A stretch of DNA of 64,000 nucleotides from Thermodesulfovibrionales bacterium (GTDB lineage: Bacteria; Nitrospirota; Thermodesulfovibrionia; Thermodesulfovibrionales; UBA1546): positions 166,084 to 230,083 of the forward strand of contig JBAQLV010000013.1 in the NCBI GenBank assembly GCA_049302185.1, given 5' to 3'. The notes under the pieces are model-generated. The model was not told where the DNA came from. It saw only the letters and a program-made list of their open reading frames with translations, and ran no database searches. Below are positions 15,179 through 63,271 of this stretch, piece after piece. Each line of letters starts with the position of its first letter. The stretch's first letter is position 1. The translations under genes were made by a program, and so were the position numbers.

Positions 15179-15232
15179 GAAGTGAGAATTTAAAACTTCT
15201 TCTTACTTCCTACTTCCTATTTCTTACTTGAA
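15157..15232. repeat. (GAAGTGA)4 array, spacer ATTTAAAA, then an imperfectly complementary (TTCCTAC)4 array at the ftsL/ftsI junction
   Basis: Period-7 arrays in inverted orientation. Mismatches are mostly G/A, which would be G-U pairs in RNA. The ftsL stop codon lies inside the first array. Confidence 0.7.
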
Positions 15233-17067: not shown

Positions 17068-18642
17068 ATGAACTTGAGGATGCTTATAAAAGATATGGAG
17101 ATAAATGAAATAATAGGCAGCGCTGATGTTGATGTAACTGGAATTGCCTATGACTCAAGGAAGGTCAAGGCAGGCGATGTCTTTGTTGCCGCAAAGGGAG
17201 AAAAGCATAACGGCCATGATTTTATCAGTGATGCGGTCAAGAAAGGCGCACTTGCAGTGGTTCATGAAAAAGCAGTAAACAGTCACTACCCCCCACTGCC
17301 CCCCCTTAGTAAGGGGGGGATTGAAGGGGGGGTAGTTTTTATCTCTGTCAGTGACAGCAGGGAGGCTCTTGCGTATCTTTCCAATAATTTTTACGAGAAG
17401 CCGTCCGATAAGTTGACTGTCATTGGAGTAACCGGAACTAATGGAAAAACAACGGCAACGTATCTTATAAAGTCAATTCTTGAGGCATGGGGAAAAGATG
17501 TCGGGCTGATAGGCACTATAAATTATCTTGTGAAGGACAGGCATTATGACGCCCCTCATACCACGCCTGAGGCGCTTGAGTTTCAGGCTGTATTGAACGA
17601 GATGGTTTCAGCGGGATGCAGCCATGTAGTGACAGAGGTATCATCCCATGCGCTTGCGCAGAAGCGGGTGGACTATACGGGTTTCAGTGTTGCAGTTTTC
17701 ACAAATCTTACAAGAGACCATCTGGATTTTCATATAACGATGGAGGAATATTTCAGGGCAAAGGAAAGACTGTTTAAAGAACTTCTTTTGAAAGACGGGA
17801 CGTCTGTAATAAATTTTGACGACCCTTATGGAAGGAGATTGATCTCCGAACTCAAGACATCGCAGCAAGGCGCGGCAAATCTACGGGATTCAAAAGCTGA
17901 AAATGTGATTACATACGGCATTGAAGCAGGAGCGGATATTGTTGCAGTAAATATTAAAAACTCATTTGACGGACTCTTGTTTGATATTAATTTCAATGGC
18001 AGGACATACAATATTCAGTCGCCGCTTATAGGTACGCACAATGTCTACAACATACTCTCTGCCGTAGGCGCTGCCGTGAGCCTGAATGTGCCGTGGGATA
18101 TGATAATAAGCGGAATAAAGAATATGGGTTCTGTAAAGGGAAGATTTCAAAAGGTTGACCTCGGACAGAATTTTCTCTGCATAGTTGACTATGCGCATAC
18201 AGAGGATGCGCTTGAAAGGCTGATATGCGCCGCCAGAGAGCTTATCAGCCAGCCACCGAAGTCACGCATTATGCATCACACCCCGCGTATTATTACTGTC
18301 TTTGGCTGCGGCGGCGACAGGGACAGGGGAAAGAGGCCGAGAATGGCCGCAATAGCAACAAAACTGAGCGATTACGTTGTGATAACCTCTGATAATCCCC
18401 GCAGCGAAGAACCGATGGAGATAATAAAAGCGATAGAGAAAGGCGCATTGAGGATGAATTATACAATTGAACCCGACAGGGAGAAGGCTATTCAGAAGGC
18501 GGTGGAGACCGCAGAAGAAGGCGATATACTGCTGATTGCAGGAAAGGGGCACGAGGATTATCAGGAGATAAAAGGCGCAAGGCATAAATTCAGAGATAGA
18601 GAGATAGCGGAGAAGGCGATAAGGAGATTATGGCGATTTTAA
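17068..18642 (+). CDS. murE: UDP-N-acetylmuramoyl-L-alanyl-D-glutamate--2,6-diaminopimelate ligase MurE
   Basis: Mur ligase P-loop [10 protein letters not shown] and the DNPR motif (TSDNPRSEEP) that marks meso-DAP-adding enzymes. Contains an in-frame palindromic insert YPPLPPLSKGGIEGG. Confidence 0.9.
   Translation: MNLRMLIKDMEINEIIGSADVDVTGIAYDSRKVKAGDVFVAAKGEKHNGHDFISDAVKKGALAVVHEKAVNSHYPPLPPLSKGGIEGGVVFISVSDSREALAYLSNNFYEKPSDKLTVIGVTGTNGKTTATYLIKSILEAWGKDVGLIGTINYLVKDRHYDAPHTTPEALEFQAVLNEMVSAGCSHVVTEVSSHALAQKRVDYTGFSVAVFTNLTRDHLDFHITMEEYFRAKERLFKELLLKDGTSVINFDDPYGRRLISELKTSQQGAANLRDSKAENVITYGIEAGADIVAVNIKNSFDGLLFDINFNGRTYNIQSPLIGTHNVYNILSAVGAAVSLNVPWDMIISGIKNMGSVKGRFQKVDLGQNFLCIVDYAHTEDALERLICAARELISQPPKSRIMHHTPRIITVFGCGGDRDRGKRPRMAAIATKLSDYVVITSDNPRSEEPMEIIKAIEKGALRMNYTIEPDREKAIQKAVETAEEGDILLIAGKGHEDYQEIKGARHKFRDREIAEKAIRRLWRF
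17287..17335. repeat. Nested palindromic element copy 2 (CTACCCCCC-actg-CCCCCCC-TTAGTAA-GGGGGGG-attgaa-GGGGGGGTAG), in-frame inside murE
   Basis: Encodes YPPLPPLSKGGIEGGV. Same architecture as the copies at 7581, 26075 and 45924. Confidence 0.8.
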
Positions 18643-21105: not shown

Positions 21106-22265
21106 TTATGAGACAGTCAACAGAGCAACAGAGCAGTAGAGCAACAGAGCAGCAGTCTTTAGTACAGAAATCTTTAGCAACTGCGCTACTGAGCTACTGC
21201 GCTACTGGGCTGCTGCGTTTCTGGGCTACTGCTCTTATCTCACTGTTCGCTGTTCACTGTTCACTGTTCACTGCTTATGCTGATGAGATTTCCTCAAAGG
21301 CAGCGGTTGTTATGAAGGTTTCAACAGGAAGGGTCCTGTTTGCAAAAAATCCAAATCTGAAACTGCCTCCTGCAAGCACAACTAAACTTGTGACAGCCAT
21401 GGTTGTTCTTGACAGGGCTAAGATGAGCGATACAGTGACAATCAGTGAGGCAGCGGCAAATGTCCCCTCGCTTAAGAAGACCAAACTGAGGGCAGGAGAG
21501 ACTTTGACTGTAGAAACTCTGCTTTACGCTGCGCTTATAAGGTCGGCAAATGATGCAGCCTTTGCGCTTGCAGAGGTTGTTGCCGGCTCGGAGAAGAAAT
21601 TCGTGCAGCTTATGAACAGAAAGGCTATAGCAATAGGAGCATCCAACACAAGGTTTATAAATACTACAGGACTTCCCGGCAAAGGTCAGCATACAACAGC
21701 ATATGACCTCTCAAAGATAATGAGGTATGCGCTTAAATATCCTGTGATAAAAGAGATTATAGGCAAGAAAGAGGCAGAGATAGCTACGGAACAGGGCAGG
21801 ACTATAGCCCTTGAAAATACGAATAAACTTCTATGGTCTGATAACGGAGCAGTCGGCGGCAAGACAGGATATACGAAAGCGGCAAGGCATTGTTTTGTGT
21901 ACGCAGGCGAAAGAGAAGGAGAGATGGTGATAGTTGCTATTCTTGGAGCGCGGAGCAGAGAGATTTTATGGAATGAGGCGGAGAAGCTCGAAACAAGAGG
22001 TTTTGCTGTTATTGCAAGCAATGAGCAGCCGGTTGTTTATTTCACAAAGGCGGATTATCAAAAAAGTTCAAAGTTCAAAGTTCAAAGTTCAAAGTTAAAG
22101 ACATATTCAAAAAATAATAAAGCAAAATCAGATAAGGTTGCATCAAAAAAGAAGCTGAATAAGGCAAAGGCCACTAAAAAGTACAATGACAGCCCCGCAA
22201 AGGAGAGCAAAAGAACAAAGGATAAAGGGATCGCTAGAAACGTGGCATATGGAAATAAGGGATAA
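21102..22265 (+). CDS. dacC: Serine-type D-Ala-D-Ala carboxypeptidase (PBP5/6-like, peptidase S11) with a repeat-encoded N-terminus and a Lys-rich C-terminal tail
   Basis: SxxK (ASTTKLV), SxN (RSANDAA), KTG (GKTGYT) active-site triad. The N-terminal 60 aa and part of the C-terminal tail are encoded by heptamer tandem arrays. The true start may be internal. Confidence 0.8.
21105..21295. repeat. Series of heptamer arrays ((AACAGAG)n, (CTACTG[ACG]G)n, (CACTGTT)n) forming the first ~190 nt of the dacC-like ORF
   Basis: Period-7/8 repeats read directly from the sequence. Confidence 0.7.
22065..22100. repeat. (AAGTTCA)4-5 array near the dacC 3' end
   Basis: Period-7 repeat; encodes [10 protein letters not shown]. 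Confidence 0.7.
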
Positions 22266-23706
22266 GAAAATACTTGTTTTCGGCCTTGCAGAGAGCGGTG
22301 TTGGCGCTTCAAATCTGCTTGCCGGCCTTGGCGCAAAGGTAACGGTTACTGACAGAAAACCGAAGGAAGCGTTAATGAAATATGTTGAAAGGCTTTTGCC
22401 TGCGGTAAGGCTCAGTCTTGGCGGGCATCCTGACGGGATACTGCAAGGCGTGGATATGATAGTGCTAAGTCCCGGTGTGCCGCCTGACATACAGCCGTTG
22501 AAGAAGGCTATGGAGATTGGGATAAGGATTATCGGCGAACTTGAACTTGCGTATCAGATAATAAGTTCAAAATTCAAAGTTCAAAATTCAAAGCTTCCAA
22601 AATTTCTGGCGATAACAGGAACAAACGGTAAATCAACCACTACAACATTATTAAATGAGATGTTAAATAAAGGAGGCTTCAGGACAATTCTGGGAGGGAA
22701 TATCGGAAATGCCCTGACAGAGGAGATATTTGGATTAGTCAGAAGTCAGAAAACCGATGATGATTTTCTGATAACTCTTAACTCTCAACTCTCAACTCTT
22801 AACTACGTGGTCGCTGAGGTGTCAAGTTTTCAGCTTGAGGCGATAGAGATGTTCAGGCCTGATGGCGCATCCATACTCAATATCACACCTGACCATATGG
22901 ACAGATACCATTCAATGGAAAAATACAAAGACGCAAAGGCGCAGATATTCGCAAACCAGAGAGAAGGAGATTTTCTTGTCCTTAATGCGGATGACCCTGA
23001 GACACTCAAAGTTAGAAGTGAGAAGTTAGAAGTGAAAAGTGAAAAACCAAGAATCTATTATTTCAGCCGCAAAAAAGCGGTAGAAGGGGTCTATTTCAAA
23101 GATGGAGTTATTTATTCTAACTTCAACTCTTCACTCTTAACTCTTAACTCTCAACTTCTGCGTGCTGATGAGATAAACATTAAAGGTGTTCACAACCTGG
23201 AGAATGCCATGGCTGCTTCGGCCATGGCTCTCCTTGCAGGATGTCCGGCAGATGCAGTTATAAGCGCCTTGAAAGATTTTGAGGGGCTTGAACACCGTCT
23301 TGAACTTGTCAGGGAATTTGAAGGCGTTGATTACATCAATGACTCAAAAGGCACGAATGCAGATGCGGTGGTAAAGTCGCTTGAAAGTTTTTCAATGCCA
23401 GTAATCCTGATTGCAGGCGGAAGAGACAAAGACGGAGATTTTTCTCTTCTGAGTTCTCTCATAAAAAGCAGAGTAAAAAAACTCGTTCTCATCGGAGAGG
23501 CAAGGGAAAAAATAAAAAAAGTTCTTGGCGGACTGACAGAGACCATATTTGCAGATAATCTGGAAGAGGCTGTGATGATATCCAGAAAATCAGCATCAAA
23601 AGGCGATGTTGTGCTCCTCTCTCCCGCATGCGCAAGTTTTGATATGTTCAGGGATTACAAAGACAGGGGAGAGCAGTTTAAAAAGATTGTGAAGGGTTTA
23701 TCCTGA
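22249..23706 (+). CDS. murD: UDP-N-acetylmuramoylalanine--D-glutamate ligase MurD (with four in-frame heptamer-array inserts)
   Basis: Rossmann N-terminus [19 protein letters not shown], Mur ligase P-loop ITGTNGKSTTT. The start was moved to the ATG at 22249 ([13 protein letters not shown]). Low-complexity inserts: SSKFKVQNSKL, LNSQLSTLN, VRSEKLEVKSEK, NSSLLTLNSQLL. Confidence 0.9.
   Translation: MEIRDKKILVFGLAESGVGASNLLAGLGAKVTVTDRKPKEALMKYVERLLPAVRLSLGGHPDGILQGVDMIVLSPGVPPDIQPLKKAMEIGIRIIGELELAYQIISSKFKVQNSKLPKFLAITGTNGKSTTTTLLNEMLNKGGFRTILGGNIGNALTEEIFGLVRSQKTDDDFLITLNSQLSTLNYVVAEVSSFQLEAIEMFRPDGASILNITPDHMDRYHSMEKYKDAKAQIFANQREGDFLVLNADDPETLKVRSEKLEVKSEKPRIYYFSRKKAVEGVYFKDGVIYSNFNSSLLTLNSQLLRADEINIKGVHNLENAMAASAMALLAGCPADAVISALKDFEGLEHRLELVREFEGVDYINDSKGTNADAVVKSLESFSMPVILIAGGRDKDGDFSLLSSLIKSRVKKLVLIGEAREKIKKVLGGLTETIFADNLEEAVMISRKSASKGDVVLLSPACASFDMFRDYKDRGEQFKKIVKGLS
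22564..23157. repeat. Four separate heptamer arrays inside murD ((AGTTCAA/AATTCAA)n at 22564-22594; (AACTCTC/AACTCTT)n at 22773-22803; (GAAGTGA/GAAGTTA)n at 23010-23045; (AACTCTT…)n at 23119-23157)
   Basis: Period-7 repeats; each insertion length keeps the frame. Confidence 0.7.
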
Positions 23707-26032: not shown

Positions 26033-26074
26033 ACAGTGAATGATAAACAAAAGGATGCAGGATACAAGATACAA

Positions 26075-26117
26075 CCCCCCTCTATCCCCCCTTAGTAAGG
26101 GGGGAATTAAAAGGGGG
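26075..26117. repeat. Nested palindromic element copy 3 (CCCCCC-tctat-CCCCCC-TTAGTAA-GGGGGG-aattaaaa-GGGGG), intergenic, upstream of murC
   Basis: Read directly from the sequence; ends 23 nt before the murC ATG. Confidence 0.8.
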
Positions 26118-26139
26118 TATCGTGCATCATGAAGGAGCG

Positions 26140-28510: not shown

Positions 28511-29468
28511 AAAGATAGGCGTTTTAATGGGCGGCATATCCAGCGAGAGAGAGGTTTCGCTGAGAAGCGGGGGCGCGGTTTTCAATGCCCTGAAAAAACT
28601 CAGGTATAACGCTGTTGCTATAGATGCTGCGTCAAACATATGCGAGGTGTTGAAAAAAGAGAAGATTGATATAGCATTTCTTGTTCTTCACGGAGGCTGG
28701 GGAGAAGACGGCTCTATACAGGGGCTTCTTGAAGTTATGGGAATTCCTTATACAGGGTCTGATGTCATTTCCTCGGCGATTGCAATGAACAAGGCGGCGT
28801 CAAAGAAGATATTTTTTTATCACAGAATTCCATCTCCGCCATTCATAATAGTTCGGAGTTCGGAGTTCGGAGTTCGGAGTTCGTTGCAAGGATATGATCT
28901 CAAAACTCAAAACTCAAAACTCAAAACTGATTTTGAAATGCCGTGGGTTGTCAAACCTGTATGTGAAGGGTCAAGCGTTGGTGTGAGCGTAGTGAAGGAC
29001 AAAGCCCAGATTGAAAGCGCGCTCAAGAATGGTTTTTCATACGGCAACGAGATAATCATAGAAAAATACATAGAGGGCAAGGAAGTCCATATAGGGATTA
29101 TTAATGACAGGGCGCTCGGAGGTGTTGAGGTAAAGACATCACTTGAATTTTACAGCTACGAGGCAAAATACACAGCAGGTTTAACTGAATATATACTCCC
29201 TCCTAAAATAGAGGAAGCAGTGTATATGAAGGCAAAAGATATTGCCCTTTCAGCGAACAGAGCGCTCGGTTGTTCAGGAGCGACAAGGGTTGATTTGAGG
29301 ATTGATAATGACGGCAATCCCTATGTGCTTGAAGTTAACACAATACCGGGCATGACAGAAACAAGCCTCTTGCCGAAGATTGCAAAGGAGGCGGGATTTG
29401 ATTTCCCGGCGCTTGTGGAGGAGATTCTTAAAGACGCAATTGAAAGAGAGCAGAAAAGGCATAGATGA
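28497..29468 (+). CDS. ddl: D-alanine--D-alanine ligase Ddl (with in-frame heptamer-array inserts)
   Basis: ATP-grasp; N-terminal [18 protein letters not shown]; C-terminal [16 protein letters not shown]. Inserts [10 protein letters not shown] and [10 protein letters not shown] are encoded by (GTTCGGA)n and (CTCAAAA)n. Confidence 0.9.
28855..28931. repeat. (GTTCGGA)4 and (CTCAAAA)4 arrays inside ddl
   Basis: Period-7 repeats; encode SSEFGVRSS…[10 protein letters not shown]. Confidence 0.7.
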
Positions 29469-31572: not shown

Positions 31573-31766
31573 GCAACAGAAAAGTTAGAAGTTAAAAGTT
31601 TAAAGTGAGTTTTTGTCATTGTCCTCCTCCGGCTTGACCGGGGGATTGACCGGACAATCCAGAACATAGTGAAAACACTGGATTCCCCGATCAAGTCGGG
31701 GAATGACATTAATGTAAATGTACAATTTATGGACAGACACTATTAACTATAAAAGGGGGGTGTTTT

Positions 31767-35423: not shown

Positions 35424-35425
35424 AG

Positions 35426-35500
35426 ATGATACAGGATGCAAGATACAAGATGCAGGATAAAAAACATTGTGTATCATGCATCGTGCATCATGTATCGTTA
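35426..35500. repeat. (GATACAA/GATGCAG)n array followed by a (TGCATCG/TGCATCA)n array upstream of lpxI
   Basis: Period-7 repeats in partly inverted orientation. Confidence 0.6.
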
Positions 35501-44984: not shown

Positions 44985-46013
44985 CTAAAAATCAAATGTA
45001 ACTGTCTCTGAAGGTTCGCTCTCTTTAAGCGGCCCGACAGCAGTTACCCTGTATGTGTGCTTAATCCCTGTTTTCTCTCTTAAAGTGAACGCAGGGGTCA
45101 CGGATTCTTTTACGAGGTTGAATCCGTCTTTTTCATTCACTTTATCGTAAATCCTGTATTTTGTCACCCACATCTCAGGATTTTCTTTCCATGAAATAAC
45201 GACTCTATCGTCTGCGACAACTGTTTGAAACCCTTCGGGCTTTGTCGGGATAAAGGTTGAAGGGTCAACCTTTATTTCCACTGATGCCTGTCCTTCACTC
45301 CGGAATTTCTTGCTCAAAAGACTGCGGATTGTATAATAAACAGGACTGCCTGTTTCCAGATTGTCGGAATATTTGAGCGCTGTCATCGGTTCTTTATTGA
45401 TTGGGTTGATACTGTATTTGCCTTTCTCGGCGCTTCTGTAAACATTATAAAGGATATTTTCACCTGCGCTATCCCATGAGATGTGCAGGGCATCATTGCC
45501 AACCTTGAATGAGATATTCTTCGGAGCAGGAGGAACAGCTTCAGGTTTTATTGCAATTATGTTTGAATCCTCGCTGAGGATGTTTTTCAGGCTTCCGGCA
45601 ATGAGTTTGTATTTATAAAGAGCGCCTGTCTTAAAATTAACATCTGTGTAGGAATTTTCCTCCTTGGGTACGGACGCTATTTTCTGAAAGCTGCTGTCTT
45701 CTGCCCTGAGAATATGAAATTCTTTCAGGTTTTCTTTTTTTGAAGTGTACGACCATGAGAGGAAAATTCTGTCTTCTCTGTGTATTGCCTTAACAGCCGC
45801 AGGCGCAGAGGGTTTTTCATATGCTTTGAGTGTAGGAGGTCCTTTTTTCCCGCAGGAGACAAGCATGAGGCAAGCAGCAAACAACAAAAAAGATGCACGA
45901 TACACGATGCATGATGCCTGATACCCCCCTTTAATTCCCCCCTTACTAAGGGGGGATAGGGGGGGGTTGTATCCTGCATCCTGTTTTAACTGCTGAGTGC
46001 TGACCGCTTTCAT
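44985..46013 (-). CDS. Hypothetical lipoprotein with fibronectin-III-like beta-sandwich repeats; the N-terminus is built from repeat elements
   Basis: Signal peptide plus lipobox (LMLVSCGKK). Upstream of that, the ORF reads through a nested palindrome ([15 protein letters not shown]) and a heptamer array, so the true start is probably internal. Confidence 0.5.
45924..45968. repeat. Nested palindromic element copy 4 (CCCCCC-tttaatt-CCCCCC-TTACTAA-GGGGGG-atag-GGGGGGGG), within the 5' region of the lipoprotein ORF
   Basis: Encodes [15 protein letters not shown] on the minus strand, in the same relative frame as in murE. Confidence 0.8.
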
Positions 46014-53980: not shown

Positions 53981-55197
53981 GGAAGCGCTATTTTGACCAT
54001 GTTGCGACAAACCCTCTTGACAGCCGTGTCTTTGATGCCATGATGCCTTATTTCACGGAGGACTTTGGAAATCCCCTGAGCATTTATGACCTTGGCACAA
54101 AGGCAAAAGAGGCAATAGAAAATGCAAGGGCGCAGGCTGCATCACTCATTAATTCAAAGTCATCGGAGATAATCTTTACATCAAGCGGAGCCGAGGCAAA
54201 TAACTTTGCGCTACGAGGCATTGCGCTTGCAAGGCAGAATGAAGGAAAGCATGTAATCGTCTCTAAGATGGAGCACCATTCAATTCTTAATTCTGCGCGG
54301 TTTCTTGAAAAGATGGGTTTTGTAGTGACTTTTCTTCCTGTGGATAAGTATGGGATCGTTGACCCCGACATGGTAAAAAAATCTATAACAAAAGAGACAA
54401 CGCTCATATCTGTAATCCATGCAAGCAGTGAGGTTGGGACTATAGAGCCTATAAAAGAGATAGGCAGGATTGCAAAAGAAAAAGGGATAATCTTTCATAC
54501 AGATGCAGTTGCAGCAGCAGGAAATATCCCTGTTGATGTGAAAGAACTTGGCGTTGACCTTTTAAGCATGGCTGCGCATCAGTTTTACGGGCCTAAAGGC
54601 GCAGGCGCTCTTTATGTGAGAGAGGGACTGAGAATAGTTCCGCTTATTTACGGCGGCATACAGGAAAACGGAAGAAGAGCAGGCACTGAAAATGTCCCTG
54701 CAATTGTCGGGATGGGCAGGGCAGCAAAACTTGCAAAAGATGAGATGGCTGATAGAATGGAGCAGGCTAAGAAATTAAGGAATAAACTTATTAAGGGCGT
54801 ATCAGACATTGAAAACATTTATCTTACAGGACATCCTGTCGGAAACGACTCGCAACGAGAAAACAGGCTTCCGGCACATGCGAGTTTTACAGTTGAATTC
54901 ATAGAAGGCGAGGCAATGCTTCTGCTTCTTGCAGCAAAGGGCATTTATGCCGCTTCCGGTTCTGCATGTTCGTCAAAGGCATTAAAGGCATCGCCTGTTT
55001 TGCTGTCAATGGGCGTGTCTTCAAATCTGGCTCAGGGCTCGATTGTCTTTACGCTTGGCGCCGGCAACACAGAGGAAGATATAGATTCCCTGCTTTCTGA
55101 GTTTCCGCAGGTGATAAAAAGATTAAGAGAGATGTCCCCCTATGCAAAAGGTTGGGGAACGAAAGGAGAGGGTGGAGAATGTACAGTGCAAAAGTAA
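53977..55197 (+). CDS. iscS: Cysteine desulfurase of the NifS/IscS family (the PLP-lysine position reads as Gln)
   Basis: Class-V aminotransferase fold; SSGAEANN, DAVAAAG, active-site Cys loop ASGSACSS. The canonical SGHKIYGPKG is SMAAHQFYGPKG here (CAG at 54580-54582). Confidence 0.85.
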   Translation: MRKRYFDHVATNPLDSRVFDAMMPYFTEDFGNPLSIYDLGTKAKEAIENARAQAASLINSKSSEIIFTSSGAEANNFALRGIALARQNEGKHVIVSKMEHHSILNSARFLEKMGFVVTFLPVDKYGIVDPDMVKKSITKETTLISVIHASSEVGTIEPIKEIGRIAKEKGIIFHTDAVAAAGNIPVDVKELGVDLLSMAAHQFYGPKGAGALYVREGLRIVPLIYGGIQENGRRAGTENVPAIVGMGRAAKLAKDEMADRMEQAKKLRNKLIKGVSDIENIYLTGHPVGNDSQRENRLPAHASFTVEFIEGEAMLLLLAAKGIYAASGSACSSKALKASPVLLSMGVSSNLAQGSIVFTLGAGNTEEDIDSLLSEFPQVIKRLREMSPYAKGWGTKGEGGECTVQK

Positions 55198-55547
55198 TGG
55201 ACCATTTTACAAATCCGAGGAATGTGGGAGAGATACCTGACGCTGACGGTGTCGGCACAGAGGGGAACCCTACGTGCGGGGATGTGATGCAGATTTTTAT
55301 AAAGGTGAAGGACAACACGATAGTCGATGCAAAGTTCAAGACGTTCGGATGCGGCGCTGCTATTGCGGTAAGCAGTATGATTACGGAGATGATCAAGGGT
55401 AAGACGATTGATGAGGTGTTAGCAATATCAAAGGAGACCGTTGCAAATGAATTGGACGGACTGCCTGCGCAGAAGATGCATTGCTCTAATTTAGGAGCGG
55501 ATGCGCTTAAGAAAGCCATTGAAGATTACAGGAGCAAAAACAAATGA
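55179..55547 (+). CDS. iscU: Fe-S cluster scaffold protein IscU/NifU
   Basis: Three conserved Cys (CGDVM, GCGAAIA, HCSNLG); the start was moved to the ATG at 55179 (RBS GGTGGAG). Confidence 0.9.
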   Translation: MYSAKVMDHFTNPRNVGEIPDADGVGTEGNPTCGDVMQIFIKVKDNTIVDAKFKTFGCGAAIAVSSMITEMIKGKTIDEVLAISKETVANELDGLPAQKMHCSNLGADALKKAIEDYRSKNK

Positions 55548-55827
55548 TTCGCCATTATTTCAGTCATTCCCGAGAAAGTGGGAATCTATGATGCAGCAAT
55601 ACGCAACACAAATAAAATGCTGGATCCCTTTGATATGCCTTTTGCCTATGACCCTGCCACAGGCAGAGTCTGGTCCATCAAAAAAGGTTTTGAGAACCGG
55701 TGACCTTTACCCCGCTCGGATTTTCTAATGGGGTTTACAAGTTCAATTTCAGACTGGTAATATAGCAAGTGTCCGTGATTAGTGTCAGTGAGTAATAATT
55801 ACTGACACTCACAACTGACACTGCACT

Positions 55828-55922
<95 letters not shown>

Positions 55923-55924
55923 GA

Positions 55925-56012
55925 AACGGCAGTTAGTTAAAAGTTGAGAGTGAAAAGTGAAAAGTTTTAGAGACTCGAAACTTCTAACTTTCAACTTTAA
56001 ACTTTTAACTTA
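55925..56012. repeat. Long inverted heptamer-array hairpin (GTTAAAAGTTGAGAGTGAAAAGTGAAAAGTT-ttagagactcg-AAACTTCTAACTTTCAACTTTAAACTTTTAAC) immediately 3' of tRNA-Ser(GCU)
   Basis: Inverted repeat of period-7 units; a likely transcription terminator for the tRNA. Confidence 0.6.
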
Positions 56013-56028
56013 GATTGAGGGGGGTTAT

Positions 56029-56586
56029 ATGAACAAAAAGATTGTGATAGCAGTAATGTTAAGTTTAGCGCTGGTATATTTTGTCGGCTGTAAAAAGAAG
56101 GAACAACAGCCTGTCCCTAAGGCGCCGGCGATGCCGCAAGGGATGGGAGTGCTTCCACAAGAACATACAGCACCGCAGGGGCATCAGATGATGTCAGGCG
56201 GAAAGCTTCAGGTTGTTGTCCCTGATAACGTAAAAGGCAAGTGGAACTCTGTCAAGGTTCTAATAGAGGAGAAGGATACAAAAAAAGTACAGGAATATAC
56301 AGTTAAACTCAACAGCGAGTGGAAAATTCCAGGTTCCAATTTAAAGGTGACTGTTGGGGAGTTTCTTCCTGATTTCACGATGGACGGGGATAAAATAACT
56401 TCAGGCTCAAGTGAGCCGAATAATCCGGCGGTTGGCATAAAGATAGCAGAGGGTGGCAAGCAAATATTCCCTGCTCAGGGAAAGCAATGGGGATGGCTGT
56501 GGTCCCGCAGAGAACTGCAATCAGTGCATCCATTTGAACATCCCAAGTATAATATTATATTAAAAGAACCTGTGAAGAATGGATAG
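56029..56586 (+). CDS. Hypothetical lipoprotein
   Basis: Signal peptide plus lipobox (LVYFVGCKK); 185 aa; no motif recognised. Confidence 0.5.
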   Translation: MNKKIVIAVMLSLALVYFVGCKKKEQQPVPKAPAMPQGMGVLPQEHTAPQGHQMMSGGKLQVVVPDNVKGKWNSVKVLIEEKDTKKVQEYTVKLNSEWKIPGSNLKVTVGEFLPDFTMDGDKITSGSSEPNNPAVGIKIAEGGKQIFPAQGKQWGWLWSRRELQSVHPFEHPKYNIILKEPVKNG

Positions 56587-56595
56587 TTTGGCAAT

Positions 56596-56672
56596 GCGCC
56601 CATAGCTCAGCTGGATAGAGCGTCGGACTACGAATCCGCAGGTCGGGGGTTCGAATCCTCCTGGGCGCGCCA
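56596..56672 (+). tRNA. tRNA-Arg (anticodon ACG), CCA encoded
   Basis: Acceptor GCGCCCA/…GGGCGCG, D-arm TAGCTCAGCTGGATAGAGC, anticodon loop CTACGAA, TΨC GGTTCGAATCC. Confidence 0.9.
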
Positions 56673-56782
56673 AACGAATTTGCTTCAGCAAAATTCGAAG
56701 TCGTTAAAGACAGTGTATAGTGAATAGTGAACAGTGAATAGAACTGAATACTATTCACTCGGGTCTGTCAACTATTTCTCTG

Positions 56783-57241
56783 GTGAATAACGATAAAAAA
56801 CACATTCATTTCATGAGGCTGGCTCTTGAAGAGGCAAGTCTTGCTTTTTCTGAGGGCGAAGTGCCTGTCGGCGCTGTTCTTGTCAGTGAAGATGTTGTTA
56901 TTTCCCGGACGCACAATACCCGTGAATCATCAAAAGACCCTACTGCGCACGCAGAGATGATTGCAATAAGAATCGGAGCAGAAAAGGGCAGTAGCTGGCG
57001 GTTAGGTGAAGCCACACTCTATGTGACAAAAGAGCCGTGTATTATGTGTGCGGGTGCAATGGTGAATGCAAGGATAGCCAGACTTGTTTACGGCTGTAAA
57101 GATGAAAAAGGCGGAGCAGTTGACAGCCTTTATAAACTCCTGAGTGACAGAAGGCTTAACCATCAGGTTGAGGTTGTTTCAGGGATTCTTAAAGATGAAT
57201 GTGCAGAGATGTTGATAAAGTTTTTTAAGGAACGCAGATAG
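56783..57241 (+). CDS. tadA: tRNA-specific adenosine deaminase TadA
   Basis: CDA fold zinc motifs HAEMIAI and PCIMCAGAM; 152 aa. Confidence 0.9.
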   Translation: MNNDKKHIHFMRLALEEASLAFSEGEVPVGAVLVSEDVVISRTHNTRESSKDPTAHAEMIAIRIGAEKGSSWRLGEATLYVTKEPCIMCAGAMVNARIARLVYGCKDEKGGAVDSLYKLLSDRRLNHQVEVVSGILKDECAEMLIKFFKERR

Positions 57242-57316
57242 ATTCCTGCCATACATCTATTCTTCAATTACTTTTTTGTTTTAAACTAAAAACTACTCAC
57301 TGATAACTGTTGTTAT

Positions 57317-57406
57317 GGAGAGGTGCCAGAGAGGCTGAATGGGGCGGTCTCGAAAACCGTTGTGGGGGCAACTTCACCGGGGGTTCAAATCCCTCCCTCT
57401 CCGCCA
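57317..57406 (+). tRNA. tRNA-Ser (anticodon CGA), CCA encoded
   Basis: Acceptor GGAGAGG/CCTCTCC, anticodon loop CTCGAAA, long variable arm, TΨC GGTTCAAATCC. Confidence 0.85.
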
Positions 57407-57663
57407 TGAAAAACAGTTTAAAGTTTAGAGTTGAAAGTTAAGAGTTAAGACTAACTTACAAAATCAAGAAAGGATGGCGCTGAAGTATGGATAGGATTCT
57501 TGAAAGAAGTAAATATTTAATCTTGATTGCCATTGTCTTTGCAGCGCTTATCGCATTCAGCCATTTCAAAAGCAAGGACTGATTAGAATTCAGATGTTTG
57601 GTATCTTGACATTAAAAAGAAAAGAACCTGAACAGTGCAGTTAAAAGTTAAAATGGCCGTAGG

Positions 57664-58383
57664 GTGGATATGGGGGTTCATGATATGACAGCTTTTTTAG
57701 CGTCGCTCATCTTTGTCGTTTTAGCTGAGATGGGCGACAAGACCCAGCTTCTTGCAATGGCTTTTGCCTGTCGGTATCGCTGGCAGACAGTCATGTGGGG
57801 GGTATTAGTCGCAACAGCGGCAAATCATCTTATGGCTGCTGCACTGGGTAATTACCTGAACGCAATTGTGCCTATGGAATATGTAAAGATAGCAGCGGCT
57901 GCATCTTTCATCATTTTCGGCTTGTGGACTATACGTGGAGACAAACTGCAAGATGAGGACAAAAAATATAAGTTCAGTCCTTTCTGGACAGTAACAATAG
58001 CCTTTTTTATAGCTGAGATGGGTGACAAGACCCAATTGGCAACGATAGCCCTTGCCGTGGAATACAACACCATCATTCCTGTCTGGCTTGGGACAACGCT
58101 TGGTATGCTCATTTCCAATGCCATTGGGATAATATTCGGCATAGTAATGGGTAAGAGGATACCTGAAAGAACGATAAAATGGGCAGCAGCCTTAATCTTT
58201 ATCGGTTTTGGAGTATGGGGGCTTCATGAAACATTGCCGGGACATTTCCGCAGCCCTGTCGTTGTCGCGGCCGGCGCAGCCCTGCTCGGGCTTTCCATAT
58301 ATGTCATGTACCGGATAGGAGGCAAAGAGCCTCAGTTGGCGAATGTCTGCGAGAGGGTTGAAGCCCTCGGCAAAAAAACATGA
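57664..58383 (+). CDS. UPF0016 (GDT1/TMEM165/MneA) family cation transporter, putative Ca2+/Mn2+:H+ antiporter
   Basis: Two copies of the family signature E-x-G-D-(KR)-(TS) (LAEMGDKTQL and IAEMGDKTQL) in a duplicated 3+3 TM topology. Confidence 0.75.
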   Translation: MDMGVHDMTAFLASLIFVVLAEMGDKTQLLAMAFACRYRWQTVMWGVLVATAANHLMAAALGNYLNAIVPMEYVKIAAAASFIIFGLWTIRGDKLQDEDKKYKFSPFWTVTIAFFIAEMGDKTQLATIALAVEYNTIIPVWLGTTLGMLISNAIGIIFGIVMGKRIPERTIKWAAALIFIGFGVWGLHETLPGHFRSPVVVAAGAALLGLSIYVMYRIGGKEPQLANVCERVEALGKKT

Positions 58384-58444
58384 TTCAGACAGAGGATCAG
58401 TCGTCATATAAATCATAAAAAGAAATGGTTCCTTCAGGAACTGT

Positions 58445-61180
58445 TTGATTAATTCTAAAGGGGCATATATGCGCTGGCATCAGAAAGAGACTAAAGATAT
58501 ATTAGACGACCTGCAGTCGTCTTCAAAAGGGCTTTCTTCAGAAGAGGCGCAGAAGCGGCTGCTCGAATATGGCCCGAATGAATTAAAGGAAAAAGAAAAG
58601 AGAACTCTTTTTATGATGTTCCTTGACCAGTTCAAGGACTTCATGATTCTTGTTCTGATTGCTGCTGCAATAATTTCCGGCATTATCGGCGAACCCGCGG
58701 ATACTATAGCCATTATAGTAATCGTTGTCCTTAATGCCGTCATAGGATTTATTCAGGAATACAGGGCGGAAAAGGCTATGGCTGCCCTTAAAAAGATGGC
58801 TGCGCACACCGCCCTTGTATTGAGAGGCGGCATGCCGGCAAATATTTCCGCATCAGAAATTGTTCCGGGCGATATTGTATTGCTTGAGGCAGGGAAAGTT
58901 GTGCCTGCTGATATGAGGCTGATAGAAACCGCACAGTTGAAAGTTGAAGAGGCAGCCCTTACCGGCGAATCTATCCCGGTAGAAAAACATATAAAGGCAT
59001 TGCATGACGAGATGCTGCCGCTCGGCGACAGAAAAAATATGGCATACAAAGGCACTACCGTGTCGTACGGCAGAGGCGCCGGTATTACAGCGGCTACCGG
59101 AATGGACACCGAGCTTGGAAAGATTGCAACCATGCTTCAGGAGGAAGAAGAGGTAAAAACACCCCTTCAAAAAAGGCTCGCTGCATTTGGGAAGAAGCTT
59201 GCCATTGCGGTGCTTGCAATATGCGCCGTAGTCTTCGGCATAGGGGTTTTCAGGGGCGAACCTGCCTTGTTGATGCTCTTGACCGCCATATCCCTTGCTG
59301 TGGCAGCGATACCTGAAGCGCTTCCTGCTGTTATAACCATATCCCTTGCCCTCGGCGCAAAGAAGATGGTTAAGCAGAATGCCCTGATAAGAAAGCTCCC
59401 TGCTGTTGAGACCCTCGGCTCCGTCACATACATATGCTCTGACAAGACAGGGACGCTGACACAGAACAGGATGAGGGTGGAAGAGATATATGTGGACGAA
59501 AGAATAGTAACGAGTTACGAGTTACGAGTTATGAGTAAAGAGGAATTTGATAAACTTGTTACTTGTCACTCGTCACTTGTCACTTTTTTCAATGCCCTTG
59601 CTTTAAGCAATGACGCGAAGCCTGACAGGGATGGGAATATCATCGGCGATCCTACAGAGGTTGCTCTTTTCAATATTGCAAAAGACAAAGGTTTTGATAA
59701 GAATGAGATGGAAAATCAGATGCCGAGGGTTGCCGAAATCCCTTTTGACTCCGACAGGAAGTGCATGACGACGTTTCACAAGATACAAGATACAGGATAC
59801 AGGATACAAGATGGAAAAAATCGTGCATCGTGCATCATGAATCATGCATCTTTTATTTCTTTCACCAAAGGCGCGATTGAAGTTCTTCTGGAAAAATCAG
59901 ACGGCATCCTCAAATCAGGCGGGACAGTAAAGATAGATAGGGAAGAGATTCACAGGGTTAATGAAAGGATGGCTGCTGACGGACTGAGAGTGCTCGGTAT
60001 TGCGATGAGGGGATGGAATGAGCTTCCCTCAGACATGTCCCATGAGAATGTGGAAAGAGGACTTATAATCATAGGCCTTGTAGGCATGATGGATCCTCCG
60101 AGGGAGGAGGCAAGGGAGGCAGTGGCAATGTGCCAAACTGCAGGGATAAAACCCGTTATGATTACCGGCGACCATCCGATTACAGCATGGGCAATTGCAA
60201 GAAGGATAGGCATTATTGAGGAAGATGATGTGCACTTTAACACCATAACGGGAAGAGAACTTGAGAAGTTATCCTTACAAGAATTCGAAGAGAGGGTTGA
60301 ACATATAAGTGTTTATGCGAGGGTTGCGCCCGAGCAGAAATTAAAAATAGTAAAAGCCCTTCAGGACAAAGGTCAATTTGTTGCAATGACAGGAGACGGT
60401 GTGAATGATGCGCCCGCATTAAAAAGAGCAGACATTGGCGTTGCAATGGGAATAACTGGAACAGATGTTGCGAAAGAGTCAGCTCACATGATACTTATGG
60501 ACGATAATTTTGCGACTATTGTAAAGGCAGTAAAAGAGGGAAGAAAGATATATGACAATATAAGAAAGTTTATAAAGTACCTTCTTACAACAAACTCAGG
60601 AGAGATATGGACACTCTTCTTCGCACCCCTTGTCGGCTTGCCGATTCCGCTTCTGCCGATCCATATACTCTGGATAAACCTTGTTACGGACGGGCTCCCT
60701 GCCCTTGCCCTCTCTGCCGAGCCCGCAGAGGGAGATGTGATGAGCAGACCGCCAAGGCATCCCAAGGAGAGCATATTCGCCCACGGATTGGGGCTTCATG
60801 CCATATGGGTCGGTCTCTTGATGGGTGGAGTTGTTCTGTTTGTCCAGGCATGGGCCATCAGGACGGAACATGCTCATTGGCAGACAATGGTATTTACAGT
60901 TCTGTGCCTTACTCAGCTTGGACATGTCCTTGCCATCAGGTCGGAAAAGGAGTCATTGTTCAGGATTGGAATATTTTCAAACAAATATCTCCTCGGTGCA
61001 GTAGCATTGACCTTTGCCCTTCAGATGGCAACGATCTATATACCATTCCTGAACCCTATTTTTAAGACAGAGCCTTTGACTCTAAATGAATTAATATTTA
61101 CACTCGCCATATCATCTGTGGTATTCTTTGCAGTGGAATTAGAAAAGCTTTTCAGGAGGAAGAAATGGCTCAGGTATTGA
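58445..61180 (+). CDS. P-type ATPase, type IIA (Ca2+-transporting, PacL/SERCA-like), with in-frame heptamer-array inserts
   Basis: CSDKTGTLT phosphorylation motif, [24 protein letters not shown], 10 TM helices; 911 aa. Two low-complexity inserts ([10 protein letters not shown]…TCHSSLVT and [10 protein letters not shown]…ASCIMNHAS) are encoded by heptamer arrays. Confidence 0.9.
59497..59852. repeat. Two heptamer-array blocks inside the P-type ATPase ((GTTACGA)4 … (GTCACTT/GTCACTC)4 at 59497-59590; (GATACAA/GATACAG)5 … (GTGCATC/ATGCATC)4 at 59770-59852)
   Basis: Period-7 repeats; each block is array-spacer-(near)inverted array and in-frame. Confidence 0.7.
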
Positions 61181-62082
61181 TGGAGACTGATTTAAAGGAT
61201 ATAAAATTCCTCAGGCGCGGAAAGGTGCGCGATGTCTATGAGATAGATGACTATCTTCTGATAATAGCTACTGACAGGGTATCAGCCTTTGATGTCGTTC
61301 TTCCGAATGGAATTCAGGATAAGGGCAAAATCCTTACTCAGATATCAATATACTGGTTTAACCAGATGAAAGACATAATGGAAAACCATATTGTTGCAAC
61401 AGATGTAAAAGACTATCCAGAGGTTTTACATAAATACAAAGACATTCTTGAAGGAAGAAGCATGCTCGTTAAGAAGGCAAAGCCGATGCCTGTTGAATGC
61501 ATTGTGAGGGGGTATCTCTCAGGCTCGGGATGGAAGGAATACAAAAAATCAGGCACAGTCTGCGGCATTAAACTTCCCGATGGGCTTGTTGAATCCGCAA
61601 GGCTTGATGAGCCGATATTCACTCCAAGCACAAAGGCAGAAGAGGAGCATGACATAAACATAAGCTTTGATGAGATGAAAAAGATTGTCGGTGATGATAC
61701 TGCAAACAAGCTCAGGAATACAAGCCTCAGAGTCTATAAAAAGGCGAGGGAGATGGCAGAGAAGAAGGGAATAATAATCGCAGATACAAAGATGGAATTC
61801 GGCATATATCAAGATGCAGGATGCAAGATGCAGGATGCAAGCAGTCGGAAAGGGAAGTTGATTCTGATTGATGAAATACTCACTCCTGATTCATCACGCT
61901 TCTGGTCTATGAAGGATTATAAGCCCGGAAAAAGTCAGGACAGTTTTGACAAGCAGATTATCCGCGACTATCTTCTTACGCTTGACTGGAACCAGACATA
62001 TCCCGGCCCAAAACTTCCTGATGAAATCGTGGAAAAGACTGCTGCGAGGTATAGGGAGATATTGGGGATATTGACGGGGTAG
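61165..62082 (+). CDS. purC: Phosphoribosylaminoimidazole-succinocarboxamide synthase PurC
   Basis: SAICAR synthetase motifs ([30 protein letters not shown]); the ATG at 61165 has the RBS AGGAGG. Carries an in-frame heptamer insert ([11 protein letters not shown]). Confidence 0.9.
61801..61846. repeat. (CAAGATG/CAGGATG)n array inside purC
   Basis: Period-7 repeat encoding [13 protein letters not shown]. Confidence 0.65.
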
Positions 62083-62090
62083 GGGTATCG
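62030..62090 (+). repeat. Left copy of a ~55 nt direct repeat (purC 3' end: …GAAAAGACTGCTGCGAGGTATAGGGAGATATTGGGGATATTGACGGGGTAG)
   Basis: A second, slightly degraded copy lies at 63343-63400 (…GAAAACTGCGGCGAGGTATAAAAAGATATTGGGGATATTGACGGGGTAAG), with a 26 nt perfect core. Confidence 0.7.
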
Positions 62091-62106
62091 TAGCGCATAT
62101 CATGGT

Positions 62107-62382
62107 TTAATCCTTATATGAGGATACCTTGACCATCTCTATAGGCTGCTCCCTGCCACAATGCTTGCAAACTATTGCATCTTCTTTAATAATCTCTGCA
62201 CAGTAGGAACATTTTTTGGTATATCCTTTAGATGCCATAGGTGGAAGCAATGCAATAACAATAATAAGCAAAGGGAAAAGGGCGCATAGTATAAACCACA
62301 ATATCGGACTGCGCCCTTTTCTTATAGCTATAATGCTCCCCGCAATACCTGCAATAATAAGCAGAATAACATATCTAAACAA
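62107..62382 (-). CDS. Small membrane protein with a C-terminal zinc-ribbon (CxxC…CxxC)
   Basis: 91 aa, two TM helices, then CSYCAEIIKEDAIVCKHCGRE. Confidence 0.5.
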   Translation of the reverse strand: MFRYVILLIIAGIAGSIIAIRKGRSPILWFILCALFPLLIIVIALLPPMASKGYTKKCSYCAEIIKEDAIVCKHCGREQPIEMVKVSSYKD

Positions 62383-62413
62383 TGGGATTCTCTACTTTCT
62401 TATGATTATTAGC

Positions 62414-63271
62414 TTATTTTTTATGTATCTCACCTATACCAATAAATGGCACAGCCCCACCGCCTGTAACCTGCGGGAGGATCCCATTCCATTTTTCTAT
62501 AGCCTTGAGATTGGCCTCTATCTTTCTAAGCTCTATAAGGTCCGGTGAAATATTTGCCCTCTGCAGCCTCAAGGACTCTGCCTCTGCCCTTGCTGTTGTA
62601 ATCCTCTGCTCTGCCTCAATCTTTATTCTATCCAGGTCTCTCTTTGACTTTAGCGCAAGCTGTTCTGCTGTCTGCTTTGACTCAATGGCTTCCATAAATA
62701 TCTTGGAGAAGCTGAAACCTACGATAGAAAAAGCGTCAACTGCTATGTTGTGCGCCAAAAGTCTTTCAGCAAGGTTTGCCCTCATTGCCTCGCTTACCGC
62801 CGGTCTCTTTGTGATAAGCTCTTCTGCTGAATACTTGGCTGTCACAGCCTTTACCACCTCCTGCACTGCAGGGTCTATGATTCGCTCTTTAAAGTGTATG
62901 CCGATGGACTGATAGACAATATTCGCCTTATCCTGAACTATATGATAGTTAAGCGCAACCTCTGAACTCACTTCCTGAAGGTCAGACGATGAAGCAGCGG
63001 CATTCGTTAAAGATTTCTGAACCTTGACATCCATTATGGCAACCTTCTGCATTATAGGTATCCTGAAATGCAGCCCTTCTCCAAGCACATCCTTCTGAAC
63101 AGCGCCAAAATTAAGGACAATCCCTCTTTGACCTGCACCAACCTGCACCCATGGATTTAAAATCAGAAAACCGACCAGAATTGCTCCAATAATCAGCGCC
63201 AGCCTCATAGGTCCTTTCTTCATTGCAGACTGCATTGCCTCCTTAGCCCTGTAAACATCTCTTTCATCCAT
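62414..63271 (-). CDS. SPFH/band-7 domain protein (stomatin/prohibitin/HflC-like)
   Basis: N-terminal TM anchor, SPFH domain (RGIVLNFGAVQKDVLGEGLHFRIPIMQKVAIMDVKVQ…), and a C-terminal coiled coil. Confidence 0.8.
   Translation of the reverse strand: MDERDVYRAKEAMQSAMKKGPMRLALIIGAILVGFLILNPWVQVGAGQRGIVLNFGAVQKDVLGEGLHFRIPIMQKVAIMDVKVQKSLTNAAASSSDLQEVSSEVALNYHIVQDKANIVYQSIGIHFKERIIDPAVQEVVKAVTAKYSAEELITKRPAVSEAMRANLAERLLAHNIAVDAFSIVGFSFSKIFMEAIESKQTAEQLALKSKRDLDRIKIEAEQRITTARAEAESLRLQRANISPDLIELRKIEANLKAIEKWNGILPQVTGGGAVPFIGIGEIHKK

Follow-up and report, generated by a model that had tools for sequence, protein, structure and literature searches.

Heptanucleotide-repeat hairpins occupy two variable loops of a P-type ATPase gene in a Thermodesulfovibrionales genome

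The 64-kb stretch of DNA analysed here (the window, to which all coordinates refer unless stated otherwise) comes from a metagenome-assembled genome of the Thermodesulfovibrionales (Nitrospirota) and represents the genome data that were searched. At 58445-61180 on the plus strand it holds an open reading frame (ORF), assigned by Pfam and protein identity to the P-type (Ca2+-type, P2) ATPases, whose coding sequence carries two blocks of paired heptamer arrays. The ORF opens with a TTG at 58445; the ATG at 58469 (M9) is the likelier true start, and a deposited 903-residue 'calcium-translocating P-type ATPase' (P0001) that begins at M9 is 100% identical. The five Pfam domains expected of such a pump (Cation_ATPase_N, E1-E2_ATPase, Cation_ATPase, Hydrolase and Cation_ATPase_C) all score above cut-off, the phosphorylation motif D333-K-T-G-T337 does not vary in the ortholog alignment, 120 orthologs are full length, and among solved proteins Listeria LMCA1 is the nearest (6zhf, E 1.7e-199). 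By every mark of the class, the host gene is an intact type II (Ca2+-pump-like) P-type ATPase. The pseudogene alternative raised in the preliminary description of this DNA is refuted by the intact frame, the five domains and the full-length orthologs.

Tandem Repeats Finder reports four period-7 arrays of 4.4-5.0 copies each in the ORF, and these recover both previously proposed blocks of array, spacer and near-complementary array (59503-59587 and 59778-59852, plus strand). Block 1, within residues R353-F381, starts with an (AGTTACG)n arm of ~4.4 units at 59503-59536 (reported by the program at 59506-59536 as AGTTACG, 4.4 copies, 91% matches), continues with a 17-nt spacer or hairpin loop coding KEEFDK at 59537-59553 and ends with an (ACTTGTC/ACTCGTC)n arm of ~4.6 units at 59554-59587 (reported at 59554-59585 as ACTTGTC, 4.6 copies). 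Its two arms are 34-nt inverted repeats with 74% Watson-Crick pairing. Block 2, residues H445-F470, consists of five (GATACAR)n units at 59778-59812 (reported as ACAAGAT, 5.0 copies), a GGAAAAA loop at 59813-59819 and an (RTGCATC)n arm of ~4.4 units at 59820-59852 (reported at 59820-59850 as ATCATGC, 4.4 copies). Between 59780-59812 and 59820-59852, 25 of 33 pairs are Watson-Crick, rising to 28 of 33 with G.U pairs on the minus strand. The peptides initially read from the blocks, V355-T380 and I447-S469 of the ORF, are in frame and correct. Block 1 matches base for base in an independent assembly (L081, see below) and is therefore not an assembly artefact. By eye, no direct repeats indicative of a target-site duplication were seen flanking either block.

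Folded as RNA, each block forms a single long hairpin in which 6-bp helices alternate with a 1x1 mismatch at every seventh base. The hairpins expected from the preliminary description are thus predicted, with the two blocks folding best on opposite strands: block 1 on the sense strand (-30.5 kcal/mol, z -4.2, none of 200 shuffles being as good) and block 2 on the antisense strand (-28.5 kcal/mol, z -5.1, as against -17.5 kcal/mol, z -1.8, on the sense strand). Both blocks are weak when DNA parameters are used (~-10 kcal/mol, z -1.1 and -2.2).

In the alignment of the 120 orthologs the proteins are 75-95% identical save for two indel-rich sites, and these coincide exactly with the blocks. Site 1 lies ~15 residues past DKTGT, between 'LTxNxMxVEE' (just after the motif) and 'ALALSNDA'. 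Site 2, at the tip of a beta-hairpin, is bounded by 'RKCMTTFH' and 'F(I/V)SFTKGA'; LMCA1 has a 4-residue turn (NENK) there. An AlphaFold2 model, poor overall (mean pLDDT 53) and used for its N-domain part only (pLDDT 65-90), renders block 1 (353-381) as moderately confident helices and block 2 (445-470) as coil of pLDDT 43-46 between strands 440-446 and 470-476. The SERCA1a counterpart of site 2 we take to be the exposed N-domain loop that contains the T1 tryptic site. Mapped onto LMCA1, the ortholog alignment and the model, the blocks fall within the cytoplasmic N-domain region, as had been supposed, at two sites of variable length.

We also took the ATPase gene from 80 species-level genomes (L001-L080), excised the two sites by protein anchors and folded both strands against dinucleotide shuffles, calling a fold strong at z <= -4. 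Among the 41 closest orthologs (L001-L041, Nitrospirota-type), strong folds were obtained for site 1 in 16 of 39 and for site 2 in 10 of 38, whereas none of 72 control pieces from the same genes folded strongly, even at z <= -3. Among 39 more distant orthologs (L042-L080, mostly Desulfobacterota-type) the counts were 1 of 39 and 2 of 35, with 2 of 70 control pieces; site 2 was too short to fold in 16 of the 35, as in the 11-residue 'TFHRWPDGKFV'. The hairpins of the close relatives bear no sequence relation to one another: there are heptamer arrays of the AGTGAAA, GATRCAR and AGTTACG types, C-rich palindromes coding 'PPLLKGG' and G+C-rich palindromes coding 'GADLRVCPKEGEHAGSPLQ', some of them nested, and one repeat family can be found at site 1 in some genomes and at site 2 in others. 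The sites are almost empty in some close relatives (P0047, P0082, P0088). Over 200 orthologs in all, the two N-domain sites are hypervariable. Rather than being inserted cleanly, the blocks take the place of variable loops, and this comparison of sequences shows the inserts to be derived, loop-restricted and lineage-specific.

Two details of site 2 deserve mention. In one close relative (L004), a 27-nt G+C-rich mini-palindrome (GCTCGCCTCGGGCGAGTCGCCGAGGAG) sits at a unit boundary within arm 1 of a block-2-type hairpin and lengthens the protein by 'ARLGRVAEE'. In the window, the loop of block 2 (59813-59821) codes D-G-K (GAT GGA AAA), the residues of the 'WPDGK' turn in insert-free orthologs (L013, L018, P0082). 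The arms may have grown around a native turn, or the match may be a coincidence, since A-rich loops generally code K or N and an intergenic copy at 35425 has a similar loop.

The coding copies bear traces of selection against stop codons. An exact complement of block 1 arm 1 (CGTAACT) would place ...TCG TAA CTC... in frame, but the real arm 2 reads TCA/CAC, with C for A, and in this codon reading the C-for-A change is the periodic U.C mismatch of the hairpin. In coding arrays of the AGTKAAA type (AGTGAAA or AGTTAAA), the G or T at unit position 4 tracks the frame: AGT GAA is used in the frame in which a T would create TAA, and AAG TTA in the frame in which a G would create TGA. The earlier proposal that copies survive in genes only where the frame is kept holds, and from block 1 arm 2 and these arrays it can be extended to copies that are also free of stops. 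Stop avoidance does not explain all mismatches, as the purine-purine mismatch at the seventh position of GATRCAR units is also present in the intergenic copy at 35425. An automated count of stems made perfect gave new stops in 7 of 31 elements; it mis-defined stems with long loops and is unreliable, so we claim stop avoidance only for the cases read by hand, namely block 1 and the AGTGAAA/AGTTAAA arrays.

The sister strain L081, whose ATPase protein is 95% identical, is base-identical to the window over kilobases, block 1 included, and at site 2 has an 84-nt AGTGAAA-type hairpin where the window has the 72-nt block 2. The two sequences form a mosaic of identical and divergent patches that is typical of frequent homologous recombination in a population. 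The first single-nucleotide polymorphism downstream of the swapped site-2 cassette, at 59875, is the allele of the more distant L082, which has the same cassette. As cassette and polymorphism both match L082, the swap is a homologous-recombination tract and not evidence of transposition. Sharply bounded patches of divergence from L081 were also observed within the ATPase gene (60301-60406) and at the junction with the downstream PurC gene (60889-61218).

PurC (SAICAR synthetase) itself contains an in-frame (GATGCAR)n array at 61810-61841 (plus strand). The L081 sequence stops inside this array, and the comparison thus covers its left side. Between the window and L081, G-to-T changes are present in four successive units (61816, 61823, 61830 and 61837) and G-to-A changes at 61819 and 61833, turning (GATGCAR)n into (GATTCAA)n with no observed change in copy number. 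One substitution repeated in four successive units amounts to concerted evolution of the array.

The repeats are a genome-wide habit and not a feature of the ATPase gene. Under one detection rule, period 7 gave 19 arrays in the window and periods 4-6 and 8-12 gave none; over 705 kb (the window plus related loci) there were 54 period-7 arrays against 0-13 for every other period from 4 to 12. These counts exclude chance. A slightly looser rule found 26 arrays in the window, 13 inside ORFs and 13 in the ~15% not covered by ORFs, a ~6-fold enrichment outside ORFs. AGT/ACT is the most enriched trinucleotide and occurs in 57 of 94 unit consensuses, compared with 16% expected. The array-bearing ORFs are real housekeeping genes, including MurD (at three sites), D-Ala-D-Ala ligase (Ddl), PurC and an S11 carboxypeptidase. 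The preliminary statement that the architecture is also found between genes holds. That the element inserts irrespective of context is too strong, given the enrichment of arrays outside ORFs and the placement of coding copies at positions that are indel-rich loops in homologues.

Intergenic copies with the same array / inverted-array architecture had been noted at 15157-15232, 35426-35500 and 55925-56012, and both Tandem Repeats Finder and folding confirm them. The plus-strand hairpin at 35425-35499 belongs to the GATRCAR...RTGYATC family of block 2 and, like block 2, has a purine-purine mismatch at every seventh position; the two share the unit type and are about three quarters identical by eye, with different loops and copy numbers. 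An (AGAAGTG)n...(CTTCCTA)n hairpin (15157-15229, plus strand) lies just upstream of the ribosome-binding site of a PBP gene. A third (55935-56010, plus strand), with an orthologous hairpin in L082, follows a tRNA-Ser gene (55828-55922) by 13 nt and lies just upstream of the next gene. The intergenic copies had been thought terminator-like, a view that does not stand: they lack a T-run, either abut the next gene's ribosome-binding site in operons, a few bases upstream of it, or follow tRNA genes, and none of the 10 terminator-like sites found in a terminator and promoter scan of 55000-62500 is a heptamer hairpin. A search of the whole window with Rfam 15 at the gathering threshold returned three tRNAs only, the heptamer hairpins matching no family.

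Each of the three tRNA genes in the window (Ser, Arg and Ser) has an AGT-type heptamer array or hairpin within 9-40 nt downstream (55828-56010, 56596-56741, 57317-57450). In L082 (2700-2890 and ~4190-4250) a tRNA lies between heptamer arrays, of which the downstream one forms a hairpin and those upstream show no significant fold (z +0.9/-0.4). Arrays also adjoin tRNAs at two metagenome loci (L100, L172). The tRNA-adjacent hairpins may be trailer, processing or termination signals.

Further in-frame copies lie on the plus strand of a cell-wall gene cluster. In Ddl, an (AGTTCGG)5...(CTCAAAA)4 hairpin (28850-28928) takes the place of the segment that corresponds to E. coli DdlB residues ~115-135 and lengthens the protein by a net 7 residues. 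MurD (22563-23156) holds arrays at three sites (22563-22604; 22737-22804; 23008-23045 with 23118-23156) that align to gaps in Streptococcus MurD. Two array pairs considered as heptamer hairpins, at 22737/22772 in MurD and at 8245/8308, were rejected with z ~+1, so not every adjacent array pair is a hairpin. At the third MurD site, the complementary arrays flank a conserved native segment of 24 residues, and in several of 120 MurD orthologs arm 1 is swapped for another array while arm 2 is unchanged. Arms that flank native residues and turn over separately need not arrive as one piece.

Comparison of this cluster with a relative of ~88% protein identity (L203) revealed local turnover at further loci. 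The Ddl site has identical flanks and different repeats, (AGTTCGG)/(CTCAAAA) in the window and (GCTGTCA)n in L203. The FtsW-MurG spacer has an orthologous hairpin in both genomes, and most of the second arm is gone from the window copy. The FtsA-FtsZ spacer hairpin is intact in L203, and its window copy holds a ~110-nt G+C-rich element between the arms. Repeats of the MurG-MurC spacer differ between the two genomes, and the FtsL-PBP spacer hairpin (15157-15229) is absent from L203. Orthologous intergenic hairpins persist with diverged units or with one decayed arm.

An S11 D,D-carboxypeptidase gene (window ~21108-22265; 88% identical to L203 8941-10017) has a signal-peptide-like N-terminus that is wholly encoded by a repeat hairpin (21108-21279 in the window, 8941-9060 in L203). 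In L203 an (AGTTAAG)n arm codes 'KTKLRVKSLELKVKK' and a (TTTTCAC)n arm codes 'IFFILFFSLFTFHFQLSTCLA', with DEISSK coming next; the window has an 8-mer hairpin and (TCACTGT)n in this place, which code another leader, again charged and then hydrophobic, ahead of the same DEISSK. The hairpin's polarity fits the order of n-region and h-region in a signal peptide. The 8-mer hairpin (21118-21232; ~-50 kcal/mol, z ~-2), the sole clear non-heptamer case, is built of (CAACAGAG/CAGTAGAG)n and (CTACTGCG/CTACTGAG)n arrays, with the (TCACTGT)n heptamer array directly after it.

Heptamer hairpins can also enclose other palindromes. A composite element at 45890-45985 (plus strand) consists of GATRCAY heptamers, a C-rich palindrome and YTGYATC heptamers, and has a near-identical copy on the other strand at 26040-26128. 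The two near-identical, oppositely oriented copies of its C-rich palindrome (ACCCCCCTTTAATTCCCCCCTTACTAAGGGGGGATAGGGGGGGGT; 45923-45967 and 26074-26118) are each exactly central in a GATRCAY...YTGYATC hairpin and share their junctions (GATA|...|TTGTATC). Related C-rich palindromes at 7580-7624 and 17284-17340 lie in frame in ApbE and a Mur ligase, where they code 'PPL.KGG' peptides that are also found at ATPase site 2 of other genomes. The ~110-nt palindromic element between the FtsA-FtsZ hairpin arms (…GGGGGATTGACCGG…GATTCCCCGATCAAGTCGGGGAATGACA…) spans 31605-31723, and a further G+C-rich hairpin is present at 1545-1640. Other small palindromes appear to use hairpin loops as landing sites.

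An exact search of metagenome contigs for GAGTTACGAGTTACGAG returned at least 120 contigs (L083-L202). Among the matches listed, contigs with (GAGTTAC)n range from 30 to 69% G+C and come from many habitats. The complementary (GTAACTC)n arm followed within 130 nt downstream in 31 of 121 arrays and lay upstream in 3. The polarity belongs to the hairpin as such, does not depend on the strand considered and is common to every AGT-type hairpin in the window. Read in the stop-free orientation, 38 of 120 arrays fell within open frames of 200 codons or more. Pfam confirmed in-frame copies in a class I aminoacyl-tRNA synthetase (L086), a histidine kinase ATPase domain (L117), type IX secretion system (T9SS) sorting domains (L106, L134) and another MurD (L083), the last in the position that 22563-22604 has in the window MurD. 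Arrays built of neighbouring unit variants often follow one another (L088, L161, L180, L182).

Building on the observed location of the blocks, their derived and variable nature, their recombinational exchange and the selection on coding copies, we favour with moderate confidence the view that they are neutral or selfish heptanucleotide-repeat quasi-palindromes, of slippage and template-switch origin, that undergo local turnover and persist in two N-domain loops permissive enough to tolerate them. Arrays would arise and homogenise locally through replication slippage, and the inverted arm would be made, and partly kept, by intrastrand template switching at a quasi-palindrome, a documented route to the creation and repair of hairpins (PMC8794818). 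Whole cassettes pass between strains by ordinary homologous recombination, as observed at site 2. Purifying selection would purge frame-breaking, stop-creating or fold-damaging copies, as seen for stops and for location, leaving copies only in permissive loops and shaping the periodic mismatches. A repeat population of this sort would fill this genome and its Thermodesulfovibrionales relatives, mainly between genes, and the two blocks would occupy solvent-exposed, length-tolerant N-domain sites and contribute nothing to the pump.

Several observations speak against such an origin. Block 1 copy number is equal in two nearly identical strains (the window and L081, the one sister strain compared); among more distant orthologs insert lengths differ. 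The AGTGAAA-like, GATRCAR and AGTTACG unit families recur at many unrelated sites as well as at both ATPase sites, and neither this recurrence nor the prevalence of AGT/ACT among the unit consensuses is predicted by plain slippage on random seeds. The composite element is present twice in near-identical form with shared junctions, which resembles copying. Finally, the fixed polarity (31 versus 3) is explained by neither slippage nor symmetric template switching.

The recurrent families and the twin composite copies favour a serious rival, in which the blocks would be copies of small non-autonomous mobile palindromic elements akin to Rickettsia palindromic elements, REPINs or MITEs. Their insertion, preferably into existing hairpins or loops, would depend on an enzyme whose gene lies elsewhere, and the heptamer periodicity would represent the element's terminal repeats. 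Fixed polarity indeed resembles that of terminal inverted repeats, and nested insertions (the 27-nt G+C-rich palindrome of L004, the central C-rich palindrome and the ~110-nt FtsA-FtsZ element) are in line with this idea. We nevertheless hold a mobile origin to be possible rather than probable. Neither block is flanked by a target-site duplication; Pfam identified no transposase, RAYT (Y1) or reverse transcriptase in the 31 window ORFs scanned (~24 others being unscanned) within this 64 kb of the genome; and no insertion sequence (IS) was found in the window. The MurD arms are split by conserved native coding sequence and turn over independently, and the Ddl and site-1 copies replace native residues and are not added to them. 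Among the matches listed, (GAGTTAC)n hairpins lie in contigs of 30-69% G+C with unrelated loops and flanks, and the sole traceable cassette swap is a recombination tract.

A more general proposal, which we put forward only tentatively, is that array / inverted-array heptamer hairpins may form a class of bacterial repeats of their own, widespread and as yet undescribed, made by a directional, sequence-preferring process. Members of the class would have an AGT-type core and a fixed polarity, with a purine-rich arm 5' and a pyrimidine-rich arm 3'. Their usual homes would be operon spacers and tRNA trailers, and they would also be steadily seeding new protein segments. Owing to the polarity, a segment of this kind would read charged, then hydrophobic, and in the S11 carboxypeptidase it would make up the whole signal peptide. 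Fixed polarity together with an AGT core, recurring among the matches listed in contigs of such different base composition, could lead to a new mechanism.

A role in the ATPase mRNA, for example as a ribosome pause at the P/N-domain boundary that aids co-translational folding, as a barrier to or target of RNase, or as an internal attenuator, seems unlikely to us, indeed strongly so. The stability of block 1 on the sense strand, followed by TTTTTT (U6), would fit, as would the hairpin potential at the same two sites in many relatives whose sequences are unrelated. However, for block 2 and the two L082 hairpins the antisense strand gives by far the better fold, and in the strong coding hairpins of the orthologs the sense-strand mismatches are A.C (43) and not the tolerated G.U (12). 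Best folds on opposite strands and an excess of A.C both argue against an mRNA-structure role, the mismatch pattern being the opposite of that expected from selection for such structure. T-to-C changes that remove stops or soften the Phe/Leu-rich second arm were presumably favoured instead. Moreover, many close and nearly all distant orthologs have no structure at these sites, the T-run after block 1 consists of two conserved Phe/Leu codons of a native helix (FF here), and neither block was flagged by the terminator scan. Covariation among five rather invariant block-2-type alleles is weak, with double-sided changes at 3 of 25 pairs on the plus strand and 0 of 27 on the minus strand.

Still less likely is that the inserted peptides are adaptive, for instance as variable regulatory or interaction loops of the N-domain under diversifying selection. 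Alleles at the two defined sites are extremely diverse and have been reassorted among strains that are 84-95% identical, which might be read in this way, and elsewhere in these genomes a repeat hairpin codes a functional-looking signal peptide. Yet the domain is cytoplasmic, the peptides are merely three-frame translations of nucleotide repeats that are found between genes too, block 2 is modelled as disordered coil, and several close relatives manage with nearly empty sites (P0047, P0082 and P0088). A canonical intrinsic (Rho-independent) terminator, with a short G+C-rich stem, a loop of 3-8 nt and a T-run behind it, we reject: the scan of 55000-62500 flagged no heptamer hairpin, the intergenic copies lack a T-run, and the T6 that follows block 1 is part of the coding sequence.

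If the account of tolerated quasi-palindromes is true, a whole bacterial order would have a repeat system that rewrites surface loops of essential enzymes (the Ca2+ pump, MurD, Ddl, PurC and carboxypeptidase) without inactivating them, a situation best documented until now for Rickettsia. Its copies would provide a natural map of insertion-tolerant sites in these proteins and a tractable case for how tandem repeats and palindromes arise together. They would also be a warning for annotation and phylogenetics, since low-complexity stretches such as 'VKSEKLKV', 'VTSYELRV' and 'PPLLKGG' would reflect translated repeats and not homology.

Among known processes, template-switch (quasi-palindrome) mutagenesis has been shown for rRNA and miRNA stems (PMC8794818, PMC10710096). 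It is a replication-based route by which an inverted copy can form beside existing sequence and pairing can be restored in one step. It has not been shown for tandem-repeat arms, however, and alone it predicts neither the polarity nor the unit bias seen here.

REPs are extragenic, with a conserved head tetranucleotide and a cognate RAYT transposase, and MITEs have target-site duplications and a parent IS. The heptamer hairpins resemble REPs, REPINs and MITEs in being small imperfect palindromes scattered in the intergenic spacers of operons, and the C-rich palindrome of the window, with its near-identical dispersed copies, is REP-like. Unlike these elements, the heptamer hairpins came with no head tetranucleotide, RAYT, target-site duplication or parent IS in the 64-kb window. 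The ATPase blocks differ from REPs and REPINs in being intragenic, with no Y1 transposase in the 31 scanned ORFs, and from MITEs in having flanks free of direct repeats and no IS in the window.

Rickettsia palindromic elements are in-frame palindromic repeats in unrelated housekeeping genes (Ogata et al. 2000, 2002, summarised in PMC10969869). Both systems comprise short palindromes that lie in frame where the protein fold permits and also between genes, and the ATPase blocks are in-frame palindromes at permissive sites in the same sense. Rickettsia palindromic elements, however, are ~100-150 bp long, have a conserved full-length consensus and peptide and belong to an obligate intracellular genus. 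Here the family consensus, the peptide and the genus do not match: the tandem heptamers of the arms vary in both unit and copy number and have no full-length consensus, the hosts belong to a free-living anaerobe lineage (Nitrospirota), and different repeats alternate at one site.

Together with the Rickettsia elements, the closest analogues are heptanucleotide simple-sequence repeats (SSRs) of the cyanobacterial type. Heptameric repeats, the building blocks of the hairpins, are known to be over-represented in many bacteria. Cyanobacterial STRRs have the units CCCCAGT and CAACAGT, both of which contain the AGT core, and Mrazek and colleagues in 2007 reportedly described long SSRs including over-represented heptanucleotide repeats. 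GGGNATC heptamer repeats were described in a 2015 paper which stated that detailed literature on heptameric repeats did not exist (PMC4692102), and the TAACTGA repeats of Beggiatoaceae (PMC4679880) have the AGT/ACT core in common with the units found here. In the literature accessible to search we found no description of a paired, polar array / inverted-array architecture, of systematic residence in essential-enzyme loops of a free-living lineage, or of different cassettes alternating at fixed sites. The repeats of the window are heptanucleotide SSRs in that they have at least three head-to-tail copies, over-representation of period 7 and an intergenic bias. As in the known cases, 7-base units run head to tail, period 7 is uniquely enriched, and the arrays are mostly intergenic near gene starts and ends with occasional in-frame copies. 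Whereas the heptanucleotide SSRs of those reports are single direct arrays, the ones described here are paired into polar hairpins and occur systematically in loops of essential enzymes.

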